DNA from: Escherichia phage SUT_E1620
DNA: 64,000 nucleotides
Sequence record: OQ939939
Reading direction: 5' to 3' (one strand)
The notes under the pieces are model-generated. The model was not told the origin of the DNA and made no database searches. It worked only from the letters and a program-made list of their open reading frames with translations. The first letter of the stretch is position 1, and each line of letters opens with the position of its first letter. This document shows positions 4,186 through 24,591 of this stretch, in pieces. The position numbers and the translations under genes were made by a program.

Positions 4186-4468
4186 ATTAGTATATCTACT
4201 GAAGGGATCTACCTGCAATCCTTGTAAACTTTTCGAGCCTGTATTCGATAAAGTAGTACAGGACTACAGTCTAGAAGTTCATAAAGAGACTGATAACACA
4301 GAACTTATGCAGAAATTTGGCGTTCGTCAGGTTCCTGTAGTAGTTCTAGCAGATCGTCTCCCTAATGGTCGTGTGGAAGCCAACCACATTCTGATTGGTC
4401 GTCAACTTCGTAAAGAAACTATGCATGACGCAATAAAAAACTTCCTGGAAGATAATCCAGAAGATTAA
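4178..4468 (+). CDS. thioredoxin-like CxxC protein
   Basis: ATG at 4178 with AGGAG SD (the track ORF starts earlier at 4127); CNPC redox-type motif near the N-terminus. Confidence 0.4.
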   Translation: MSKLVYLLKGSTCNPCKLFEPVFDKVVQDYSLEVHKETDNTELMQKFGVRQVPVVVLADRLPNGRVEANHILIGRQLRKETMHDAIKNFLEDNPED

Positions 4469-4475
4469 TAAATCT

Positions 4476-4505
4476 AACCCAGATCTTAGCTGATCTGGGT
4501 TTTTT
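4476..4505 (+). terminator. rho-independent terminator
   Basis: AACCCAGATC-loop-GATCTGGGTT hairpin followed by TTTTTT. Confidence 0.6.
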
Positions 4506-4510
4506 ATTAC

Positions 4511-4539
4511 TTGCTTTCTGCTAAAAATTTTGATATAAT
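4511..4539 (+). promoter_or_regulatory. T5-type strong sigma70 promoter
   Basis: TTGCTT-17-TATAAT plus downstream TATAAATTGATGAGAGGAG box. Confidence 0.55.
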
Positions 4540-4570
4540 ATATGTATAAATTGATGAGAGGAGTATCACA

Positions 4571-4951
4571 TTGAATTACGCATATCTTATAATACATAAC
4601 AATGTGGTCTGTGGTACTCGAGCTGTAGAGATGGGAATCACAGAAGAAAAGTATAACTCTTTGTCTAAATCGGAGCAAGAATACTATGTTGAACAGGCTG
4701 CTTGGGAATATGCTGAGGCTTATCCCGAAGAACGTGAAGGCCGTGTTACTATTGTTGTTACTTTGGGGCTGGTGGGCTGTGATACCGAAGTTGATACAGA
4801 TCTAGAAACACTTGAAGAATGGGAAGAATTGGATATTGCAGAACAAAATGCTATCATCCGTCAATCTTTCTGGGAAGCAGTAGACTGTCACGTTGTCTTT
4901 GAGCCAAATGATACAGAAGCTGAAAAACACACTAATTGGATGACTCGATAA
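4571..4951 (+). CDS. hypothetical acidic protein
   Basis: 126 aa; TTG start after GAGAGGAG; no recognised domain. Confidence 0.4.
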   Translation: MNYAYLIIHNNVVCGTRAVEMGITEEKYNSLSKSEQEYYVEQAAWEYAEAYPEEREGRVTIVVTLGLVGCDTEVDTDLETLEEWEELDIAEQNAIIRQSFWEAVDCHVVFEPNDTEAEKHTNWMTR

Positions 4952-5814
4952 TGAAAAAAGAATTTAACCTGCACGAAATGTTAGTAGTACCAGACGATGT
5001 TAACCTGTTCTTCGTAGGAGATATTCACGGCTGTAATGATATGCTGGAAGATGCTCTTAAACTAGCAGGATATAAAGAAAAGCGTGACTATGTTGTCTGT
5101 GTTGGCGACTTAATTGACCGTGGCCCGCAGAACTTACAGGTTCTAGCCAAATTCTTATATAACCCACGCTTCCGCAGCGTTCGTGGCAACCATGATCAGT
5201 TTATGATTGCTGGTGACTACGCCAACTGGATGTATAATGGTGGAATGTGGGCAATGAATGATCTAGATACCGATACAATTAAAGGTATCGCAGAAGATAT
5301 GGCAGTTAAAATGCCAGTATTCATGACTGTACTCCATCGTGGCAAGAAATATGGTGTTGTTCATGGTGGAATACCATTCCGATATAAAGATGCGGGATTA
5401 GATGTACATACACCTAATTGGGACGATATTATTGATCATATCGCTGCAAGTGAAAATGATCCTAATGATCATCCTAGTTATTACATTGAGCCATATCTAT
5501 GGGATCGTGATGTAATTCAGGAAATTGGTTTTCATCTGTCTAAGCAAGGTGCAGAGCACCCCTATTTCCAGCGTTATGCAGGATTTAAAGATGAACTGAC
5601 TGTGGAAGTGCCAGAAGTTGAAAGTGTAGATTTCGTATTCCATGGTCACACTGGTGTTCCTTACCCAATTCTGTACAAGAACCGTGTTTATCTCGATACT
5701 GGCGGTGTTTTCAACGGGCAGTTGACGGTTGCGCAAGTTAATGATGAAGCCGGTAAGATCATGACATTTACCACAGATAAAAATGATAGCTGTGGTGTAC
5801 AGAGGATTCTATAA
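4951..5814 (+). CDS. Ser/Thr protein phosphatase (calcineurin-like metallophosphatase)
   Basis: GDIHG, GDLIDRG and GNHD motifs; TAATG coupling to the upstream gene (track start 4936). Confidence 0.7.
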   Translation: MKKEFNLHEMLVVPDDVNLFFVGDIHGCNDMLEDALKLAGYKEKRDYVVCVGDLIDRGPQNLQVLAKFLYNPRFRSVRGNHDQFMIAGDYANWMYNGGMWAMNDLDTDTIKGIAEDMAVKMPVFMTVLHRGKKYGVVHGGIPFRYKDAGLDVHTPNWDDIIDHIAASENDPNDHPSYYIEPYLWDRDVIQEIGFHLSKQGAEHPYFQRYAGFKDELTVEVPEVESVDFVFHGHTGVPYPILYKNRVYLDTGGVFNGQLTVAQVNDEAGKIMTFTTDKNDSCGVQRIL

Positions 5815-6182
5815 TGGAACGTGAAGAACGTTATGTAGTTATAAAGCTATCTGATATTGAGAAAGCCATAGAATTAGGACATATCACTCAAAGTAACTTT
5901 ACTGCTTTGGAGCATATCTTGTCCAAAATATGGTATAGTCGAGCACAACGTGGTAAAGAGGATCTTAAAACAGTCGTAGTAGAGCATGATTGGCCAGAGT
6001 ACGAAGAAGTCTGGAAGATGCTAGAGAATCGTGTTGAATTTGAACAAGCACGACAGGAAGAGGTTGACAAAGGCTACCAAGAAGCGAAAGAGCACCATGA
6101 GGTTTATGATGAAATATTCAAACTTCGTGGTATTAGTAGTTATTGTCAGGGCTGGAATAAATATGCGGAGGAAGTTCTGTAA
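5814..6182 (+). CDS. hypothetical protein
   Basis: 122 aa; TAATG-coupled start. Confidence 0.4.
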   Translation: MEREERYVVIKLSDIEKAIELGHITQSNFTALEHILSKIWYSRAQRGKEDLKTVVVEHDWPEYEEVWKMLENRVEFEQARQEEVDKGYQEAKEHHEVYDEIFKLRGISSYCQGWNKYAEEVL

Positions 6183-6388: not shown

Positions 6389-6978
6389 TGAAAGTTAAAT
6401 TCTGGAGTGAACTCCACTTAGACCACCCAGGGATTCTTCGTTTTCGCCCCTGGTTTAAGAACATGAAAGAGCACGATGAGTATATCCTAGATACTTTGTC
6501 CAAGCACATTGGCAAGCGTACAAAACTTGTGCTGCTAGGAGATAGTGCCATGGGGCGAGAAGGGTTGGCCAAGTTGAAGTCGGTTATCCACAACGTGCCT
6601 AACCAACTAATTATGGGAAACCACGATGCTGAGCGTCAGGGTCTGCATATTAAAGATCTTATAGACGTTTATGATGATATTCAGGCTCTAGGTAAGCAAA
6701 CAGGTGGTGGCAAGAAGTTTTGGCTGTCACATTGTCCATTGCACGAAGCAGAACTTCGTGGTAGGCTAAACATTCACGGACATGTGCACACTAATTCTGT
6801 GCGTGACCCACGTTATATCAACGTCTCTTTTGAGATGAGCAAGACTCCTATTCCTCTAGAGGATATTGTGTCGGGCAAATTCACAAGCTATGATAAAGTG
6901 GTTAACTGCACTACTGGTGAAGTACTCCAAATCGATGAAGATGTGGCAGCGGTATTGAGGGGAGATATCAATGTTTGA
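6388..6978 (+). CDS. metallophosphoesterase
   Basis: 196 aa; GD..., GNHD and GHVH motifs. Confidence 0.5.
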   Translation: MKVKFWSELHLDHPGILRFRPWFKNMKEHDEYILDTLSKHIGKRTKLVLLGDSAMGREGLAKLKSVIHNVPNQLIMGNHDAERQGLHIKDLIDVYDDIQALGKQTGGGKKFWLSHCPLHEAELRGRLNIHGHVHTNSVRDPRYINVSFEMSKTPIPLEDIVSGKFTSYDKVVNCTTGEVLQIDEDVAAVLRGDINV

Positions 6979-14201: not shown

Positions 14202-14369
14202 GAATGATAATGTTTCTCATTTAAGAAGTGGAATGCGAATGATAATGTTTCTCATTTAAGAAGTGAAATGAGAACTATTCAAAAAGTGAAATGATTCTCA
14301 TTTAAGAAAGGAAATGATTATCAGTTAGACAGTGGAATGCGAATGATAATGATTCTCATTTAAGAATGG
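14202..14369. repeat. four tandem about 35-bp direct repeats (GAATGATAATGTTTCTCATTTAAGAAGTG family)
   Basis: units at about 14202, 14237, 14288 and 14341; related copies near 14700, 18110 and 23770. Confidence 0.7.
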
Positions 14370-14393
14370 AAGTGAGAAACACTGTTATTTAAG

Positions 14394-14502
14394 TTATCCA
14401 CAGACTTATTAACAGCACGATTTGATTTGACAGAATCCTAGCCATTTTGAGGCGTTATTAACAGACTTATCCACAGCTTATCCTACTGTATAAATATACA
14501 GT
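14394..14502. repeat. left arm of about 110-bp imperfect inverted repeat with two DnaA boxes
   Basis: TTATCCACA at 14394 and 14467; palindrome CTGTATAAATATACAG; reverse complement aligns to 17989-18096 at roughly 80 percent identity. Confidence 0.7.
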
Positions 14503-14759
14503 ATTCCTATGTAGTGAATAATTCTAATATAGGCCTAAAACGTCCTGAATCGCATTCTAACGCGTTTAATTTTGATGGAGATACTAAAACAAGGGCAAAA
14601 TTGGAGGAGGCTTAAAAATTAGTTAGCTTGCTAACGATCACACAAGGCGACACGTAACACCTTAATCATTAGCAGGCTAACCATCGCGGGCGCGGTTAAA
14701 TGAGAATCACTCTCATTTGAGAATTGGGGGCACTCCCTGGTAGTTGCGCCCCGTTATTA

Positions 14760-16711: not shown

Positions 16712-17722
16712 TTACTCGCTTTCGGTGTTAGTGGTAAAAGTAGAAATATCGATACCTTTTACCATTTCATCAATCATTTCAGCGATGTTAAAACTTTGCA
16801 CCATTTCCAGCATTGCCGCTTCCATAGCCGCCCCTGCTACCGCTTTCGCCTTTTGGTTATTTGGGGCGTACTGGTCAACCGCTACACTCAGCAGGTTAGC
16901 AATCACTACTCGACCAATAGGCGTATCGATATAACCTTTGATCATGAATGGTGCTTTTTTAGCCGCTACTTTCGTAATTTGAGTTAATGCAATTTTACCC
17001 GCTTCCAGTTTTGCAGCATTTACAACAGCGGATTTATTGGCGGCAACGATATTGGCGATCTTGGTCATGGTATTTTTTCCTTTGTTTTCAGTGATTTGAG
17101 TATTAACGCTTTGAGTGTTAGAATTTACAGCATGTTTTTCCGTGCTGTCAATGATCTGATTCTCATCTTTCCAGAAAATAAAACCCGCTTCATGTACTAG
17201 TTCATTATATATATACGGGTATAATTTCGATGGTAATAAAAAATTACCGTCGCCATCAAAAGCCATTACCGCCGTATATTGAGATCCATCACTATCAGGC
17301 CTATGCCATCCAGCAGATAAATACTTCCAGATAACATCTAAAAACCCCTCAAGGCTAGAAAGTCCGTTTATTAAATCAAGCCCAATAAGCTCAAAATTAT
17401 TTATATTAAATGATTGACGGCCTGAATTGCTATGATACGCAACAATATTATTACCCTGCGCAATAATAAAATCGGTATCCGGCCCCGCTCCCTTGCCTGT
17501 AAAGATATGGCAATCACGATTATATAAGATAATCGTTGCCCCCTGCTTATATAAGGGTAGAAAACTATCCATATCATAGGCATCATAATCATCAAAAAAG
17601 TTTTGGTGAATAGTTTCAGCCTTGTTAATAAAATGTTTAATGCTGGTTGTTCTGCTACCATCCAGCAGGTTACGCAGCGCACCTTTTAAGACGGTTGCGT
17701 TATCTGGTTTATATAGCCTCAT
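16712..17722 (-). CDS. two-domain protein of unknown function
   Basis: 336 aa; SD GGGAGG; N-terminal about 190-aa domain, polar linker, Ala/Val-rich amphipathic C-terminal domain. Confidence 0.5.
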   Translation of the reverse strand: MRLYKPDNATVLKGALRNLLDGSRTTSIKHFINKAETIHQNFFDDYDAYDMDSFLPLYKQGATIILYNRDCHIFTGKGAGPDTDFIIAQGNNIVAYHSNSGRQSFNINNFELIGLDLINGLSSLEGFLDVIWKYLSAGWHRPDSDGSQYTAVMAFDGDGNFLLPSKLYPYIYNELVHEAGFIFWKDENQIIDSTEKHAVNSNTQSVNTQITENKGKNTMTKIANIVAANKSAVVNAAKLEAGKIALTQITKVAAKKAPFMIKGYIDTPIGRVVIANLLSVAVDQYAPNNQKAKAVAGAAMEAAMLEMVQSFNIAEMIDEMVKGIDISTFTTNTESE

Positions 17723-17988
17723 TTGTTGGCCTCCCTCGTTAATCGGTGAGTGAATGATAAAGGCAATTTTCTAGCATAGGCAAATATTATTTTACCTTTT
17801 TATTTTCCTTGCCTAGCGCCTAGTTTTATGCTAACCGCGCAGCGGTACAGTAAAGAGCAAAACACGGTGAAGCCACCAGGGCGACGGGTGAAGGCTTTAC
17901 TTTAATATTACCCCACCGCATTTAGCTCGTTAGAAAGCGTTTTAGGCCGCTTAAAATTGATTGCAGTTGTTAACACTACCCATTTACC

Positions 17989-18096
17989 CTGTATATTTAT
18001 ACAGTAGGATAACATGTGGATAAGTCTGTGGATAAGTCCTTATATCGCCGCCTATCGTGTCAAATCATTTTGTGCTGTTAATAACATTGTGGATAA
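17989..18096. repeat. right arm of inverted repeat with three DnaA boxes
   Basis: TGTGGATAA at 18015, 18027 and 18088; palindrome CTGTATATTTATACAG; inverted copy of 14394-14502. Confidence 0.7.
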
Positions 18097-18936
18097 CTTA
18101 AATGATAGTGGTTCTCACTTAGGACGATAGTTTCTTATAGTTATTATTTCTATCGGTTACGATTTCTTATAATTATTATTTCTCATTAATTTATAAGTAT
18201 ATTATATATCATGAAATAGTTAGTTGGCTAATGAGATTTTCCGTGATTAATAGTCTGCTAATAGTTCCGGCTGTTACAATCCACCAGCATGATTATCATC
18301 CTAGCAACTATTAGTCTGCTATCTTTCCGATGCATACTAACAAATAAAAGTCAATTAATTTATTTCATAAAATAAGTAGTTATCCACTGGAAAATAAAAG
18401 TCAAGTGGATAACTAGGAAAATTTCATTTTTGCTTTTGGGGATAAGTTATCAACAAGGCTAGAATGCGCCTAAAACGCCCTAGAACGCGATGAAAGTTTT
18501 AGCCATGCCATTGCATTGCCTACCCTCGTTTATCGCTACCACGAGCTTTTTAGTTTTTGTCAAGTAGGGCAAGGCAAATATAAATGAAAAAATTACTTGC
18601 CAACCTGCTGGGTTTTATGGTATTCGCGCGCCCGTTTCCTTTAATTTTAGTGCGCCGCGCCCAGGTCGCCGCACGGTGTCCGGTGGCATTTTGTCTTTAC
18701 GTTTCTTTACAAAAATAAGGTTGCGCCATTTTTACTATTTGCTATTATTTATCTCGTAGGGAGGCAATGACGAACTACACGGCGGGAAGTTTACCGCCAC
18801 GCTCTTTAAAAATTGGGTATATCTTAAAGCCTATCGGCGGTAAACTTATTCATTATAAGGAATCGACGATATGAAACAGACGCTTTTGATCACTGGCAAG
18901 CCTAGCAAGGCACTAGATAGCAAAACAAAAAACTTG

Positions 18937-18964
18937 TTGACAGTAGCGCAAAGATCGGTAAAAT
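18937..18964 (+). promoter_or_regulatory. consensus sigma70 promoter
   Basis: TTGACA, 16-bp spacer, TAAAAT. Confidence 0.5.
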
Positions 18965-19070
18965 ACCGATTCACGCAGTACAAGAAAGGTCGCCAGCAAG
19001 GTTTAGAAATGATCTGGAGAAATATTATGATTGACCTGAAAGAAAATCATAAAAAACTGCAAAAAATTGT

Positions 19071-19099
19071 TTGACAACCTAGCCGATAGGCTTTAAGAT
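19071..19099 (+). promoter_or_regulatory. consensus sigma70 promoter
   Basis: TTGACA, 17-bp spacer, TAAGAT; about 200-nt leader before the ATG at 19301. Confidence 0.5.
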
Positions 19100-19226
19100 G
19101 TACCCAGTTCGATAAGAGCGATAACTTGATAAAATTTGACGGTCGGTGCTTACCATAATGCGCCCCGCCCCCTAACGGGATATAGCGGCCTACGTGGAGT
19201 TCTTTAAATTGATTAAACTGGCGAGC

Positions 19227-19277
19227 GGATTGTTACTTATTACCTGCTACTTTCTAGCAGGTAATGCGGAACAATCC
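19227..19277 (+). promoter_or_regulatory. long two-tier hairpin in the 5-prime leader
   Basis: GGATTGTT/AACAATCC outer stem enclosing TACCTGCTA-CTTTC-TAGCAGGTA inner stem, just upstream of the SD. Confidence 0.4.
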
Positions 19278-19300
19278 ATCAAATAACTGGAGTTTATATT

Positions 19301-19552
19301 ATGCAAAACGTTATTACCGCGCCTAAAATTGGTCAATCTGTTTTTATTCCTTTCGTTACTAAAACGGACGAATTAACCGGAAAAGCCGAACGTATTAAAG
19401 GCGCGGCGCTTATGCCTTTCGATACAATCGACGCGGTATACGCTGAAAATGAACGTAGTAACAACGGCAAGCCTGTTTTTAACGTTCGCGTTAAATCCGG
19501 CGACGTTGTAAAGATCATTCAGAAGGATGATAAATGGCAAGCCATAGCATAA
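19301..19552 (+). CDS. hypothetical protein
   Basis: 83 aa; SD CTGGAG. Confidence 0.4.
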   Translation: MQNVITAPKIGQSVFIPFVTKTDELTGKAERIKGAALMPFDTIDAVYAENERSNNGKPVFNVRVKSGDVVKIIQKDDKWQAIA

Positions 19553-19652
19553 ATTAGTGTTACTTTTATATTCCCCTGAAATATGGGGAATATATGGATT
19601 AACATTAGTTAATCATAATCCCTTAATTAATAATTGAATGGAGTATTAAATT

Positions 19653-20069
19653 ATGTCTAACGTTAAAACCGAAAAAACCGCAAAATTCTCTTGGAACGAA
19701 GAAAACACCGAAAAGGCTGTTTCTATGTATTCTGAAATGGTCGCTAAAAGCGGGATTGAGTTTGCGAATAGTGACGGCTTAAAAGAAATTGCCGCCGCCG
19801 TTGGCGCTGCTAGTCCGGTGTCTGTACGTTCTAAACTGACAAGCGCAAAAGCGTACCAGAAAAGCGATAAACCGCGTAAAGTTGGCGGCGGGTCTAGTGT
19901 CCGTAAAGCTCACTATGTGCGCGTCATTGCTAAACATGCCATTGATAGCGGCATTGTAAAAGACGCTGACGATCTGGCAAGTCTGGAAAGTGCAAAACTG
20001 GAAACGCTGGACGCCGTAGCTCAATTGTTAGGCGTAGCGGAGGAAGTAAAACAGGCCGCAGGTGAATAA
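19653..20069 (+). CDS. hypothetical protein
   Basis: 138 aa; SD TGGAG. Confidence 0.4.
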   Translation: MSNVKTEKTAKFSWNEENTEKAVSMYSEMVAKSGIEFANSDGLKEIAAAVGAASPVSVRSKLTSAKAYQKSDKPRKVGGGSSVRKAHYVRVIAKHAIDSGIVKDADDLASLESAKLETLDAVAQLLGVAEEVKQAAGE

Positions 20070-20127
20070 ATTTTAATTAGCGGGGAATATTCCCCGCTAT
20101 AATTTCCCTTTGACCGGAGTTATTAAA

Positions 20128-20355
20128 ATGATTTTCTTCCCTAGTGAAGCGTTTATTTTAGGTTTATTTATAGTTGCCGCTATGTTTATATTTAATTACG
20201 GCAAATATATAATCTCTATTATCGGCATTAATTCAGCTTATGCCGCTGATATGTTTAAACGTCAAGCTAATAAACAAAAATATCTGGCGATTATATTTTT
20301 AACGCTGGCTATTAGTTGCGGGTTTAGTTCTAGTCTTATGCCAATTCTAGAATAA
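20128..20355 (+). CDS. small membrane protein
   Basis: ATG at 20128 with GGAG SD (the track ORF starts at a TTG at 20110); two hydrophobic helices. Confidence 0.35.
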   Translation: MIFFPSEAFILGLFIVAAMFIFNYGKYIISIIGINSAYAADMFKRQANKQKYLAIIFLTLAISCGFSSSLMPILE

Positions 20356-20463
20356 TATTGCAAATTATAACGCCTTTTAAATTGTCCTCACTTCAGGCAA
20401 GGCGTTATATTTGGCAATATTGCCAGTATTAATATTTATCCCTTTATAGGAGTTGATTTAGTT

Positions 20464-22134
20464 ATGAATATTTCCGCAGAAAAACAAGCTCAAATTTTGA
20501 AAATGGCCGCTGATTTTAATTTCTATGGTAAGCGTTTACGCGCTACTAAATTGGAAGTTTGCGACGATATTTCAAAAGCTGTTTATGATACGCCGAAACA
20601 TTCGACCGCAATTTGTGACTGGCTGGAAGCAAATAAGCCAGCGAAACCGAAAGCGGCAAAAGCTGAAAAGGCGATTAAAAATGATGATCGCCCCGAAGCG
20701 GCGGGAATTGTTTCTAGTACCGTTGAACAATGGGAAGTTAAATCCGGTCGCCGTTTTATTCTAACGTCGATTCAAAATAATACTTTCCCGCATAAAAACT
20801 TTTTAGCAAGTCTGGAAAAATTCGCTGAATATTGCGGCGCTGAATTGCTGATTAGTAAATTCATTTATAATAAAAATGGATTCCAGAACGGGGAAGGGGC
20901 AAACGGTATTAAATACGATCCCGCATTTGATAAATATGTTTGTGATAAAAACGTATTTTTAAATAACCGCCGCTTTGCTTTCATGGCTGAAATTAATGTT
21001 TTACCAACGGCAGATTATCCGCTTTCAGGATTCGCAGAAACCGCCACGGCTTTAAATATCGAAGGTCTGGCAATTGGTCACGCAAAAATTACCGCTGAAA
21101 GTGTTCCCGCGCTTAAAGGTGAAGTAGTGCGCCGTATGTATTCAACCGGAACGGCAACGCTCAAAAACTACATTCAGCAGAAAGCCGGACAAAAGGCCGA
21201 GGCGCTGCATAATTTCGGTGCGCTTATTGTCGAGTTCGACGAAGACGGTGAGTTTTTTGTTCGCCAGCTTGAAACGATGGATGAAAGCGGGGTATTTTAT
21301 GATCTGAATGTTTGTGCTACTCCCGCCGGATGCTATGAAACAACGGGACACGTTTTAGGTTTACAATATGGTGACATCCACGCTGAAAAATTAGATGAAG
21401 AATGCGCCGCTGCATCTTGGGGGCATGGCGACACCTACGGGCTTGTGGATATTCTTAAACCAAAATATCAATTCGTACACGACGTGCATGATTTTACATC
21501 ACGCAACCATCACAACCGCGCATCCGGTGTATTCCTAGCAAAACAATACGCCGCCGGACGTGATAAAGTTATTGATGATCTTATCGATACGGGGCGCGTG
21601 CTGGAATCAATGGAACGTGATTTCTCGCAAACAATCATTGTTGAATCTAATCACGATTTGGCGCTATCCCGTTGGCTTGATGATCGTAATGCTAACATTA
21701 AAGACGATCCAGCAAACGCGGAACTATATCACCGCCTAAATGCCGCGATTTATGGAGCTATTGCAGAAAAAGACGATACTTTCAACGTGCTAGATTATGC
21801 GCTGCGCAAGGTTGCAGGTTGTGAGTTTAACGCCATTTTTCTAACTACTGACCAATCTTTCAAGATTGCAGGCATTGAATGCGGCGTACACGGTCACAAC
21901 GGCATTAACGGCAGCCGTGGCAATCCTAAACAGTTTAAGAAATTGGGCAAGCTAAACACGGGACACACCCATACCGCTAGCATTTACGGTGGCGTTTATA
22001 CCGCTGGCGTAGCTGGTAGTCTGGATATGGGTTACAACGTTGGCGCGTCAAGCTGGACGCAAACGCATTTAATTACCTATGCAAACGGTCAGCGCACTTT
22101 GATTGACTTTAAAAACGGTAAATTTTTCGCGTAA
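20464..22134 (+). CDS. A1: A1-like pre-early metallophosphatase
   Basis: 556 aa, the size I recall for T5 A1; phosphoesterase motifs YGDIHAE, HGDTYG, RNHHN, GVHGHNG, GHTHT; SD TAGGAG. Confidence 0.65.
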   Translation: MNISAEKQAQILKMAADFNFYGKRLRATKLEVCDDISKAVYDTPKHSTAICDWLEANKPAKPKAAKAEKAIKNDDRPEAAGIVSSTVEQWEVKSGRRFILTSIQNNTFPHKNFLASLEKFAEYCGAELLISKFIYNKNGFQNGEGANGIKYDPAFDKYVCDKNVFLNNRRFAFMAEINVLPTADYPLSGFAETATALNIEGLAIGHAKITAESVPALKGEVVRRMYSTGTATLKNYIQQKAGQKAEALHNFGALIVEFDEDGEFFVRQLETMDESGVFYDLNVCATPAGCYETTGHVLGLQYGDIHAEKLDEECAAASWGHGDTYGLVDILKPKYQFVHDVHDFTSRNHHNRASGVFLAKQYAAGRDKVIDDLIDTGRVLESMERDFSQTIIVESNHDLALSRWLDDRNANIKDDPANAELYHRLNAAIYGAIAEKDDTFNVLDYALRKVAGCEFNAIFLTTDQSFKIAGIECGVHGHNGINGSRGNPKQFKKLGKLNTGHTHTASIYGGVYTAGVAGSLDMGYNVGASSWTQTHLITYANGQRTLIDFKNGKFFA

Positions 22135-22187
22135 TTAAATTATCCCCTAGCGGCTTGAAATATAGCCGCTATTACAGGAGTCAAAAA

Positions 22188-22877: not shown

Positions 22878-22956
22878 TAGTTGATTTATTATTACCCGCT
22901 TATAAATAGCGGGTAATGCTGAATTAATCTAATCCCTTAAATGGAGAACGTAACAA

Positions 22957-23691
22957 ATGAATAAAGCTATTATGAATATTTCCCGCAGCTTCCCGCATAT
23001 TTCCCGCGTCATGATTTGGGATTTAGACGGCACTATCGTTAATTCTTTCCATCGTGTAGCGCCTTGCTTTGATAGTGAGGGCAATTTAGATTTAAATAAG
23101 TATAAAAATGAAGCGTGTAAACATCATTTAATAATGCAAGATACTTTATTGCCATTGGTTGAATATATGCGCCAGTGCATGAATGACGCAAATACTTTAA
23201 ACATTATTTGCACCGCTCGACTGATGAGTAAGTCGGACTATTATTTCTTGCGCAAACAAGGCTTGCGCGGTCGTGGTAATAGTAATATCCGCGTATTTTC
23301 CCGCGACACACTGCATAAATATTTTAAAGCTGATAAGGTTAGCGAAATATACCACAGCAAAGACGCAGTATATAAATCTTATTATTTTGAATTATTTAAA
23401 CAGTTATATCCGAACGCTGATTTTACAATGATTGATGATCATAAAGGCGTACTATCAGCGGCGGCATCATACGGATTTAAAACGCTGGACGCCCAAGCCG
23501 TTAATGATATTCTATCAATCGGCGTGGCATTAATAGGTGAAACCTTTATTGATGAATCTCTCGACGATGATAATGATTATCAATTCCTAGCCGATCGTTT
23601 GAAATTATGTTGGGAAGGTATGACCGAAGAAGAACGCGCAGAATATAGTACCACACCGCAACAATTCATTGATAAATTAAAAGTTGCCTAA
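22957..23691 (+). CDS. dmp: HAD-family 5-prime-deoxyribonucleotidase (dmp-like)
   Basis: 244 aa; HAD motif I WDLDGTIVNS; SD ATGGAG; size matches my recollection of T5 dmp. Confidence 0.6.
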   Translation: MNKAIMNISRSFPHISRVMIWDLDGTIVNSFHRVAPCFDSEGNLDLNKYKNEACKHHLIMQDTLLPLVEYMRQCMNDANTLNIICTARLMSKSDYYFLRKQGLRGRGNSNIRVFSRDTLHKYFKADKVSEIYHSKDAVYKSYYFELFKQLYPNADFTMIDDHKGVLSAAASYGFKTLDAQAVNDILSIGVALIGETFIDESLDDDNDYQFLADRLKLCWEGMTEEERAEYSTTPQQFIDKLKVA

Positions 23692-23854
23692 CAATTAAAA
23701 ATAAAATAGTCACACTGTGTAATGATAACATGGTGTGACTATTAGCTTGCTAAGTAAGGGGGCGGTAATGAGACTCATTCTCATCTAGGGAACCTCTGGG
23801 CACACCTTCATGTGTAATCTTATGAGATTTCGAGAATTGGTAATTAGCGCTAAC

Positions 23855-24100
23855 TTAGGAGGAACACCGGTCTACTGGCTTGTCTCCTGATTCTGACATA
23901 CGAAATCTCCTCCGCGATGCCCGAGATCCATCCGACCACTCTCGCTCAAACTCCTCCCGTTTCTCCGCAAACTTCCGCTCCCTTTCCGAAAGCTCCCGCG
24001 ATACTCCCGCAATATATTCACGATGCTTATTAATCGCCCCGAGTGTTCCGAAGATTCCCACAAGCACCCCGATAATAAAGATAGCTACAAAGCTAAACAT
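23855..24100 (-). CDS. small membrane protein with charged C-terminal tail
   Basis: 81 aa; N-terminal TM; TAATG-coupled to the upstream small ORF. Confidence 0.4.
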   Translation of the reverse strand: MFSFVAIFIIGVLVGIFGTLGAINKHREYIAGVSRELSERERKFAEKREEFEREWSDGSRASRRRFRMSESGDKPVDRCSS

Positions 24101-24204
24101 TACTTGTCTCCCCGCAGCTTACGTTCAATACGAGCTAAGTGGTTATCTAAGATGCACTGCCCGATAATTACCACAACTAGTAAAGCAATAATTACTACTT
24201 CCAT
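24100..24204 (-). CDS. small membrane peptide (about 34 aa)
   Basis: hand-translated MEVVIIALLVVVIIGQCILDNHLARIERKLRGDK; TAATG overlaps at both ends. Confidence 0.3.
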   Translation of the reverse strand: MEVVIIALLVVVIIGQCILDNHLARIERKLRGDK

Positions 24205-24338
24205 TATAACCACCCCGCCATAGCCGCTAACCAAAAGAGTACAAAGATAAAGAATAACACAGTCCCGAATCCGAAACTATTTATCCAACTTTCGTACACT
24301 TCCCCGCGTCTGTTCTTTCTTCTGTTGTCGTCTGACAT
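24204..24338 (-). CDS. small tail-anchored membrane protein
   Basis: ATG at 24338 with CAGGAG SD (the track ORF extends to a GTG at 24389); C-terminal TM helix. Confidence 0.3.
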   Translation of the reverse strand: MSDDNRRKNRRGEVYESWINSFGFGTVLFFIFVLFWLAAMAGWL

Positions 24339-24591
24339 CTCTTTGCTTCTCCTGTAGTCCTGGTATTTGGAATATCCTAGCAATTGCACGAACCATTACG
24401 ACTGTCCCGATAAGATCCATTACTTCATCGAAGCCGGACTCTTCTAGCAAAAAGGATGTTCCCATCACATCTTCCATTGTATCTTCTATGACGTCTTGAA
24501 TGATTTCGTTAATTGCATCATGTATTGCTTTAGTCCTGGGATCTATTTCAAAGTTAACAGGTTCCTGAAAGGACTTTTCTTCATCTTGCAT
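24277..24591 (-). CDS. hypothetical acidic protein
   Basis: 104 aa; weak SD; overlaps the downstream small ORF. Confidence 0.3.
   Translation of the reverse strand: MQDEEKSFQEPVNFEIDPRTKAIHDAINEIIQDVIEDTMEDVMGTSFLLEESGFDEVMDLIGTVVMVRAIARIFQIPGLQEKQRDVRRQQKKEQTRGSVRKLDK

Follow-up and report, generated by a model that had tools for sequence, protein, structure and literature searches.

A probable central control region of pre-early transcription in the T5-like Escherichia phage SUT_E1620 and its conserved leader hairpin

The stretch of DNA described here, positions 18100-19300 of a window of 64,000 nucleotides (nt) from Escherichia phage SUT_E1620 (record OQ939939, one strand, 5' to 3'; the window is this whole sequence and all coordinates refer to it unless T5 is named), most probably represents the central control region of T5-like first-step-transfer (FST), or pre-early, DNA, a reading to which a probability of about 85% is given. 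The stretch is a mosaic and not a single element, and three parts are distinguished. The first is a fast-evolving non-coding spacer (18100-18560) adjoining an inverted-repeat arm known as IRC-spacer-IRD. The second is a conserved block (18540-19074) in which a candidate promoter and a variable GC-rich island accompany two small genes, 009 and hdi. The third is a putative expression module (18937-19300), which would comprise two tandem promoters, a leader of some 195 nt and a conserved two-tier hairpin that acts at the RNA level. Orthology, gene content and promoter identity carry this assignment, together with the conservation, covariation and paralogy of the hairpin, all of which are demonstrated by the comparisons given below.

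In the proposed mechanism the host sigma-70 polymerase would start at the promoters P-H22 and P-D/E20 once the FST DNA enters the cell, as is established from work on T5. The transcript would cover the operon 007-A2-005-A1-003-002-dmp. The leader hairpin, and a paralog placed before dmp, would then be intercistronic signals by which the polycistronic pre-early messenger RNA (mRNA) is processed or stabilised.

An earlier note on this DNA, made from the sequence alone, had described the stretch as the regulatory hub of pre-early transcription. Every feature that it listed is present at or near the position given. The proposal holds for the two promoters, which are orthologous to P-H22 and P-D/E20, but not for the DnaA-like boxes at 18380-18455, the 32-base-pair (bp) units and the GC-rich island. 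Judging from the sequence comparison, a hub is unlikely to have these as core components, because close relatives do not conserve them.

The region drives the first minutes of T5-type infection and expresses the host-killing functions Hdi and dmp. Its orthology to a region already described in T5 saves effort, and the comparison sorts its parts: the promoters, the inverted repeat IRA/IRA' and the hairpins are under selection, whereas the 32-bp units, the extra boxes and the GC-rich island are not.

Orthology to the T5 terminal repeat

The source phage is T5-like (Tequintavirus, Demerecviridae), with about 95% identity to the phages Baret and mar004NP2. A search with the 1.7 kb around the stretch gives matches in 454 phage records, and in 196 of these the match covers 80% of the query or more. 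The best matches are all T5-like, extend over the full length at 92-96% identity, and include the Escherichia phages Baret and mar004NP2, Salmonella phage PMBT29, BF23 and others. Where the records have annotated ends, the match is positioned 4-6 kb within the left terminal repeat. A second scan for relatives, in IMG/VR with a protein profile, leads to the same 37 loci. A Vibrio phage match was considered as a more distant relative and set aside, since its genomic context differs.

The stretch corresponds to the middle of the T5 terminal repeat and is flanked by the homologs of T5.011 and T5.007. The terminal repeat is the FST DNA, the first to enter the cell, with the pre-early genes aboard (PMC7472727). 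Alignment to T5 (NC_005859) proceeds in two blocks, 17000-18119 against T5 7217-6098 (92%) and 18350-20487 against T5 5419-3353 (79%), and the counterpart of the control region lies at about nt 4,480-6,100 of T5. The order of the genes is identical in the annotated maps of BF23, oldekolle and T5, as compared through their open reading frames (ORF).

Alternatively, the density of signals could for the most part reflect chance and mosaic debris next to a pair of ordinary promoters, and have no function beyond these. The left 450 bp are variable through indels, allele swaps and a homing-endonuclease insertion, the GC-rich island is without conserved structure, and promoter-like sites are in modest excess (20, against 12.2 +/- 4.1 in shuffles). 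However, conservation peaks at 18700-18870 and 19080-19130, where it reaches 90-98% and stands above that of the neighbouring coding sequence, and compensatory change is seen both in the hairpins and in IRA/IRA'. This explanation is given little credence.

Tandem pre-early promoters

The promoters and promoter candidates of the region are the following.

18937-18964, plus strand: ortholog of T5 promoter P-H22, TTGACA-16-TAAAAT, 11 of 12 consensus matches, within hdi
19071-19099, plus strand: ortholog of T5 promoter P-D/E20, TTGACA-17-TAAGAT, 10 of 12 matches, with a -35 hexamer that overlaps the hdi stop codon
17728-17806, minus strand: position of P11, the T5 promoter upstream of gene 011 (T5 feature 6411-6489, mapped through the 92% alignment), outside the stretch
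18557-18584, plus strand: candidate promoter of 009-hdi, TTGTCA-16-TATAAA, hexamers conserved and spacer variable

The two TTGACA promoters reported in the earlier note at 18937 and 19071 are recovered by the promoter scan and are the orthologs of P-H22 and P-D/E20. They form a tandem of sigma-70 promoters 134 bp apart. In T5, the feature 'P-H 22' is annotated at 4799-4873, within T5.008, and the T5 sequence TTGACAatagcccagcaatcggTAAAAT is the counterpart of 18937-18964, with identical hexamers. The T5 counterpart of 19071-19099 is TTGACAccctagccgataggctTTAAGAT, located at the stop codon of hdi. The P-H22 hexamers are kept in 28 of 30 relatives, and both hexamer pairs in nearly all of them. 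P-D/E20 is also present in Eos, in Klebsiella phage KPN4 (Sugarlandvirus) and in GSW6 (Epseptimavirus); beyond Tequintavirus, P-H22 is not obvious.

The function of these promoters comes from T5. P-H22 and P11 have been confirmed through primer extension, and their kinetics are pre-early (PMC7472727). P-H22, P-D/E20 and the gene-011 promoter are the three experimentally characterised pre-early promoters; P-D/E20 overlaps hdi in part, and according to two laboratories the strength of the promoters prevents cloning of the locus (10.64898/2026.04.02.716235).

P11 drives the leftward pre-early operon, and a promoter-like sequence (TTGCCT-18-TATCAT, 17783-17754) lies within its mapped position. With this leftward-directed promoter at 17728-17806, the space between the gene blocks is thus where the control of both pre-early operons diverges. 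The candidate at 18557-18584, which would serve 009 and hdi, is excluded by the rule of the promoter scan that requires a T at position 6. A second candidate at 18721-18748 likewise has conserved hexamers and a variable spacer. Inspection of the reverse complement of IRA for a leftward promoter reveals no acceptable -35 hexamer.

The leader hairpin and its paralog

Two hairpins of the same family are placed upstream of genes of the rightward operon.

19227-19277, plus strand: two-tier leader hairpin of the T5.007 homolog, whose ribosome-binding site follows after 10 nt and whose ATG after 23 nt
22881-22927, plus strand: paralogous second hairpin, between the T5.002 homolog and dmp, ending 15 nt before the GGAG of dmp

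The leader, from P-D/E20 to the T5.007 homolog, measures about 195 nt. The two-tier hairpin that had been noticed just before the first gene of the A1/dmp block is borne out, with arms of 23 nt (19227-19249 and 19255-19277) that are 87% complementary and a predicted energy of -28.6 kcal/mol (z = -6.3). Folding of the alignment supports the structure. Across 27 distinct sequences, pairing is kept in 96.1% of the cells and eight pairs have changed on both sides; none of 500 shuffles reaches this, and no slid register comes close. The compensatory changes span four genera. L012-type phages, GSW6, Eos and KPN4 carry other upper-stem sequences at the same place and in the same two-tier shape, so that five lineages share the architecture of an 11-12-bp upper stem and a 7-8-bp lower stem with an internal loop between them (z from -4.3 to -6.7). 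G-U pairs are more numerous than A-C mismatches (38 to 8), which favours the mRNA strand.

Both hairpins share UUAUUACCyGCU...AGCrGGUAAUGCkGAA. A covariance model built from the first hairpin only retrieves 22881-22927 at 36.8 bits (E about 1e-5) and the T5 copy with an E of about 7e-7. Among relatives the second hairpin displays A-U to G-C swaps and even wholly different stems, and G-U exceeds A-C by 151 to 12. Taken from the comparison of sequences, the leader hairpin is a real and selected structure of the mRNA strand, which makes a role of the ribonuclease III (RNase III) type reasonable.

Attenuation, also raised in the earlier note, finds no such backing. In that case the leader hairpin would control access to the A2/A1/dmp operon as an attenuator or intrinsic terminator, and a stable hairpin does stand between the promoters and the first gene; moreover, in the BF23 record the paralog upstream of dmp is labelled a terminator (ARNold-predicted), despite the lack of a U-tract. 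On the other hand, no U-tract follows either hairpin (3' flanks AUCAAAUAACUGGAG and UCUAAUCCCUUAAAUGGAG), the terminator scan is silent at 19227-19277, no conserved competing fold was seen, and strong termination would be costly with the essential A1 and A2 downstream. A role of this kind is very improbable.

Simpler hairpins are found at 19567-19594 (between 007 and A2) and at 22148-22171 (after A1), with different stems and an identical 8-nt loop, UGAAAUAU. In the window the loop motif TGAAATAT is not enriched (4 occurrences, 5.7 expected), nor is AATCCCYWA, a motif noted before ribosome-binding sites (3 matches, 2.65 expected).

The inverted repeat IRA/IRA'

A second RNA-level signal may reside in a 39-nt inverted repeat of two distant arms.

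18800-18838, plus strand: IRA, the left arm, within gene 009
19082-19120, plus strand: IRA', the right arm, covering the spacer, the -10 hexamer and the start region of P-D/E20

The pair brackets hdi and both promoters, and the same pair exists in T5. Both arms fall within the conservation peaks at 18700-18870 and 19080-19130. They covary over four genera: the arm versions differ among Tequintavirus, Epseptimavirus, Eos and KPN4, and each left arm mirrors its own right arm. In the 27-nt core, 15 distinct arm pairs give 358 Watson-Crick pairs, 35 G-U pairs and 4 A-C mismatches when read on the sense strand, and in the fold predicted for RNA of 18780-19125 the IRA:IRA' helix forms the closing stem (z = -9.8). 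Because the arms change together, G-U prevails over A-C and the predicted fold closes on this helix, the data suggest pairing within a sense-strand transcript that would start upstream of 18800. Gene conversion between the arms, or a C-to-T bias of the non-template strand, are alternative causes of the pattern.

Two further observations concern the sequence around IRA. A perfect 12-nt stem (18787-18798 / 18836-18847, AAGTTTACCGCC / GGCGGTAAACTT) would leave most of IRA in a 37-nt loop; it is kept in T5 and in the Epseptimavirus relatives, and no matching stem turned up in KPN4 and Eos. The motif YTCTTTAAAnnTTG occurs in IRA (18803-18817) and again in the leader upstream of the hairpin (19200-19214), and at the equivalent place of the leader Eos, KPN4 and GSW6 have CGCTCTTTAAcAATyTGG.

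The hairpins and IRA/IRA' could instead act on DNA, as palindromic binding sites or cruciforms, for instance for A2 or for the A1-dependent shut-off of the pre-early promoters. IRA' coincides with the core of P-D/E20 and its inverted copy lies 243 bp upstream, a geometry known from DNA-looping operator pairs; A1 is reported to dampen the pre-early promoters (10.64898/2026.04.02.716235), and A2 binds double-stranded DNA. However, the stems are replaced wholesale between lineages with the pairing kept, unlike a protein-recognition site, and where two arms disagree the sense strand almost always has G-U, which on the opposite strand or in a cruciform would be an A-C mismatch (38 to 8, 151 to 12 and, in IRA/IRA', 35 to 4). 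A DNA-level role is thus held to be improbable.

Action on the RNA remains the preferred reading, and its possible forms are graded. RNase III cleavage as in the early mRNA of T7, proposed by analogy, would be the most likely single mechanism, and it is put forward tentatively. Protection against exonucleases without cleavage comes next and is somewhat more doubtful. DNA-level roles and attenuation are each much further down the scale. It is also conceivable, if rather unlikely, that the two hairpins and the long-range IRA:IRA' helix together lead to a double-strand-specific processing of the pre-early RNA, comparable to that of T7 early RNA, that uncouples the toxic Hdi from the essential A2 and A1 messages; the papers searched contain no description of such processing in T5. 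If the hairpins are processing signals, they would explain how differently dosed pre-early proteins arise from one strong promoter pair, and they would be useful parts for phage engineering.

Several points weigh against the reading as a whole. The wobble bias of the leader hairpin is possibly due in part to a C-to-T mutation bias of the non-template strand. About 40% of the relatives have a G-to-T change that opens one lower-stem pair (18-62) and is uncompensated. The literature search, which did not extend to Wang 2005 and Davison 2015, returned no paper linking RNase III to T5 pre-early mRNA. The use of the promoters in this phage is extrapolated from T5 on sequence grounds. Finally, the GenBank T5 feature 'P-D/E 20' (4338-4664) misses the hexamers at about 4690-4718. 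This GenBank range seems imprecise, reflecting either a cloned fragment or a shifted coordinate. The identification of 19071-19099 as P-D/E20 is based on the overlap with hdi stated in the preprint, on the sequence itself and on the published sequence of the promoter. The supplement of Klimuk 2020 is without promoter sequences.

Small genes and the GC-rich island

The conserved block contains two short genes and, upstream of them, an island of unusual composition.

18767-18874, plus strand: T5.009 homolog, 35 amino acids (aa), 94% aa identity, with a GGGAGG ribosome-binding site upstream
18871-19074, plus strand: hdi (T5.008 homolog), 67 aa, 59 of 67 residues identical (88%) over the full length, phrog_4718 (E = 2e-40)
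18600-18690, unstranded: GC-rich island, indel-prone, without conserved frame or fold

The stretch had been presented as one without long ORFs. This is correct insofar as the longest ORF in 18100-19300 has 67 aa, but the ORFs of 67 and 35 aa are real genes, with 88% and 94% aa identity to T5. Among 31 distinct relatives both genes vary most at third codon positions, the values for the three positions being 197/162/371 in hdi and 40/30/66 in 009. T5.008 encodes Hdi, a pre-early inhibitor of FtsZ ring formation whose function has been demonstrated in T5 (PMC10714956).

The GC-rich segment is as conspicuous as had been described, with a GC content of 0.56 at 18600-18699 against 0.24-0.40 nearby. 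Relatives differ in it by indels of 10-11 nt, T5 lacks the 3' half, and folding of the alignment gives no supported structure. A 44-aa ORF (18584-18718) overlaps the island, matches phrog_17446 and has an annotated coding sequence at the corresponding place in BF23. This ORF lacks codon periodicity (202/179/165) and its frame is broken among relatives by the same 10-11-nt indels; on these sequence patterns it is probably not coding, and the phrog_17446 family would be an artefact of gene calling. Three roles considered for the island, as terminator, as small RNA and as leader peptide, were rejected, given the unsupported fold, the indels, the 3' half missing from T5 and the absence of periodicity in the ORF.

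The variable left spacer and the DnaA-like boxes

The left part of the stretch, next to the inverted-repeat arm, contains the elements below.

17974-18120, unstranded: right arm of a 147-nt inverted repeat (IRC-spacer-IRD of Davison), partner at 14370-14516, 78% complementary
18131-18194, unstranded: AT-rich 32-bp unit in two copies, copy number variable among relatives
18251-18349, unstranded: segment flanked by TAGTCTGCTA repeats; the T5 alignment breaks at 18262 and resumes at 18350
18377-18455, unstranded: extra DnaA-like boxes, a palindromic pair TTATCCACT/AGTGGATAA followed by TGGGGATAA and TTATCAACA, with AAATAAAAGTCAA repeats next to and between them
18437-18445: DnaA-like box TGGGGATAA
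18447-18455: DnaA-like box TTATCAACA

The right inverted-repeat arm said to precede the stretch ends at 18120. The IRC-spacer-IRD element has been described (bioRxiv 10.1101/866236), and the partner arm at 14370-14516 is the IRD'-spacer-IRC' of Davison. The right arm contains paired DnaA boxes 3 bp apart, at 18015/18027 and 18076/18088 (TTATCCACA matches), and these pairs are conserved among relatives. About 3.5 kb left of the stretch, 14370-14724 (the partner arm plus repeats 14277-14305 / 14696-14724) marks the region that corresponds by homology to the injection stop signal of T5.

The duplicated units were found as announced, as copies at 18131-18151 and 18163-18183 that are 95% alike and have a period of 32. 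Relatives carry none (T5), one, two (as here) or three copies. The duplicated short motifs are likewise in place, TAGTCTGCTA at 18251 and 18312 and AAATAAAAGTCAA at 18342 and 18392. In T5 and some other phages the approximately 87 bp of 18263-18349 are replaced by the cassette of the HNH endonuclease hegG, located in T5 at 5411-5929. This homing-endonuclease gene brings its own promoter into the slot, which in phages without the insert is bordered by the TAGTCTGCTA repeats.

Near-consensus DnaA boxes had also been pointed out, and TTATCCACT is present at 18380-18388 (plus strand) and 18404-18412 (minus strand), each matching at 8 of 9 positions; together the two boxes constitute a 15-nt inverted repeat. 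In the window, matches to the DnaA consensus TTATNCACA are enriched beyond chance and clustered. Of the 8-mer core TTATCCAC, 10 copies are present in the 64 kb where 2.3 would be expected, a number that none of 100 shuffles reaches. Seven of the ten fall within 14394-14474 and 18016-18412, in the two arms of the inverted repeat and in this stretch. For the segment 18375-18460 two alternative alleles exist, and the one with four boxes is present here: about one third of the relatives carry these boxes, whereas T5 and some two thirds of the relatives lack the boxes of 18380-18455 and have unrelated sequence.

These data bear on a further alternative, in which the DnaA-like boxes and AT-rich repeats (18015-18455) would form a working DnaA-binding module, either as part of the injection-stop and membrane-anchoring system of Davison or as an oriC-like origin. 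Davison proposed, as a hypothesis only, that the conserved paired boxes of the large inverted repeat arrest DNA injection (bioRxiv 10.1101/866236). The enrichment and clustering of TTATCCAC agree with such a module, as do the conservation across T5-like phages of the boxes paired at 3 bp in IRC-spacer-IRD and in the partner arm (bioRxiv 10.1101/866236) and the AT-rich segment (GC 0.23-0.24) between the box clusters. On the other hand, the boxes of 18380-18455 and the 32-bp units are missing in T5 and many relatives, the T5 replication origins are near the genome centre, and Davison rates this repeat part a poor stop-signal candidate (bioRxiv 10.1101/866236). From the sequence features, a working module is unlikely, if somewhat less so than a role of the hairpins at the DNA level.

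Genomic context

The neighbouring genes named above have the following positions.

16712-17722, minus strand: T5.011 homolog, 336 aa, left of the stretch
19301-19552, plus strand: T5.007 homolog, 83 aa, phrog_3747 match, opening the rightward operon 007-A2-005-A1-003-002-dmp
19653-20069, plus strand: A2, right of the T5.007 homolog
20464-22134, plus strand: A1, 556 aa, with a small membrane-protein gene between A2 and A1
22957-23691, plus strand: dmp, separated from A1 by two small genes

The physical end of T5 lies about 120 bp beyond dmp, and here the sequence runs on smoothly past dmp (23692-24500). Many database records are likewise contiguous across this point. Because the sequence continues past dmp as it does in those records, the window probably derives from an assembly in which the terminal repeat was collapsed or permuted. 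In Rfam, no family is matched at the gathering score anywhere in the window. When 17000-20500 is searched by E-value, the sole match is mir-3012 (E = 0.08), which is spurious.

Comparison with known systems

The boxes resemble the DnaA-box clusters of oriC and those of the injection-stop model of Davison 2020 in that near-consensus 9-mers are clustered, partly paired and located beside AT-rich DNA. Unlike those systems, the boxes of 18380-18455 are allele-specific, the sites are putative and the location is not that of the stop signal.

The closest system is the central FST region of T5 itself, with the Repeat Regions 1 and 2 of Davison (IRA, IRA', IRB and IRC-spacer-IRD). Both occupy the same position, at 79-92% DNA identity, and share the two small genes, the two promoters down to their hexamers, the inverted repeats and the hairpin. 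They differ in that SUT_E1620 has an 87-bp segment in place of the hegG HNH cassette, two 32-bp units, four extra boxes at 18380-18455 and a GC-rich island that is 10-11 nt longer.

IRA/IRA' recalls the processing stems of bacterial rrn operons, since the two arms are complementary, 243-435 nt apart, bracket a functional unit (hdi) and change together as the stems around 16S and 23S rRNA do. Here, in contrast, a protein-coding gene and two promoters are bracketed, one arm doubles as a promoter core, and the IRA:IRA' pairing requires a putative transcript from upstream of 18800.

The features of the RNase III sites in T7 early mRNA (R0.3, R1.1 and others) are well known and form the basis of the last comparison. 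Like them, the hairpins of SUT_E1620 are intercistronic or in the leader, extend over about two helical turns, have an internal loop and no U-tract, and occur more than once per polycistronic early transcript made by the host polymerase. Unlike them, they have no sequence homology to the T7 sites, come as two paralogs with the simpler UGAAAUAU-loop hairpins in addition, and are cleaved only putatively.

For T5, previous work already covers the region with its repeats and DnaA boxes, as well as hdi and both promoters, and the window holds their ortholog. The hairpin family with its covariation, the second copy before dmp and the sense-strand signature of IRA/IRA' may be new, Wang 2005 and Davison 2015 aside.

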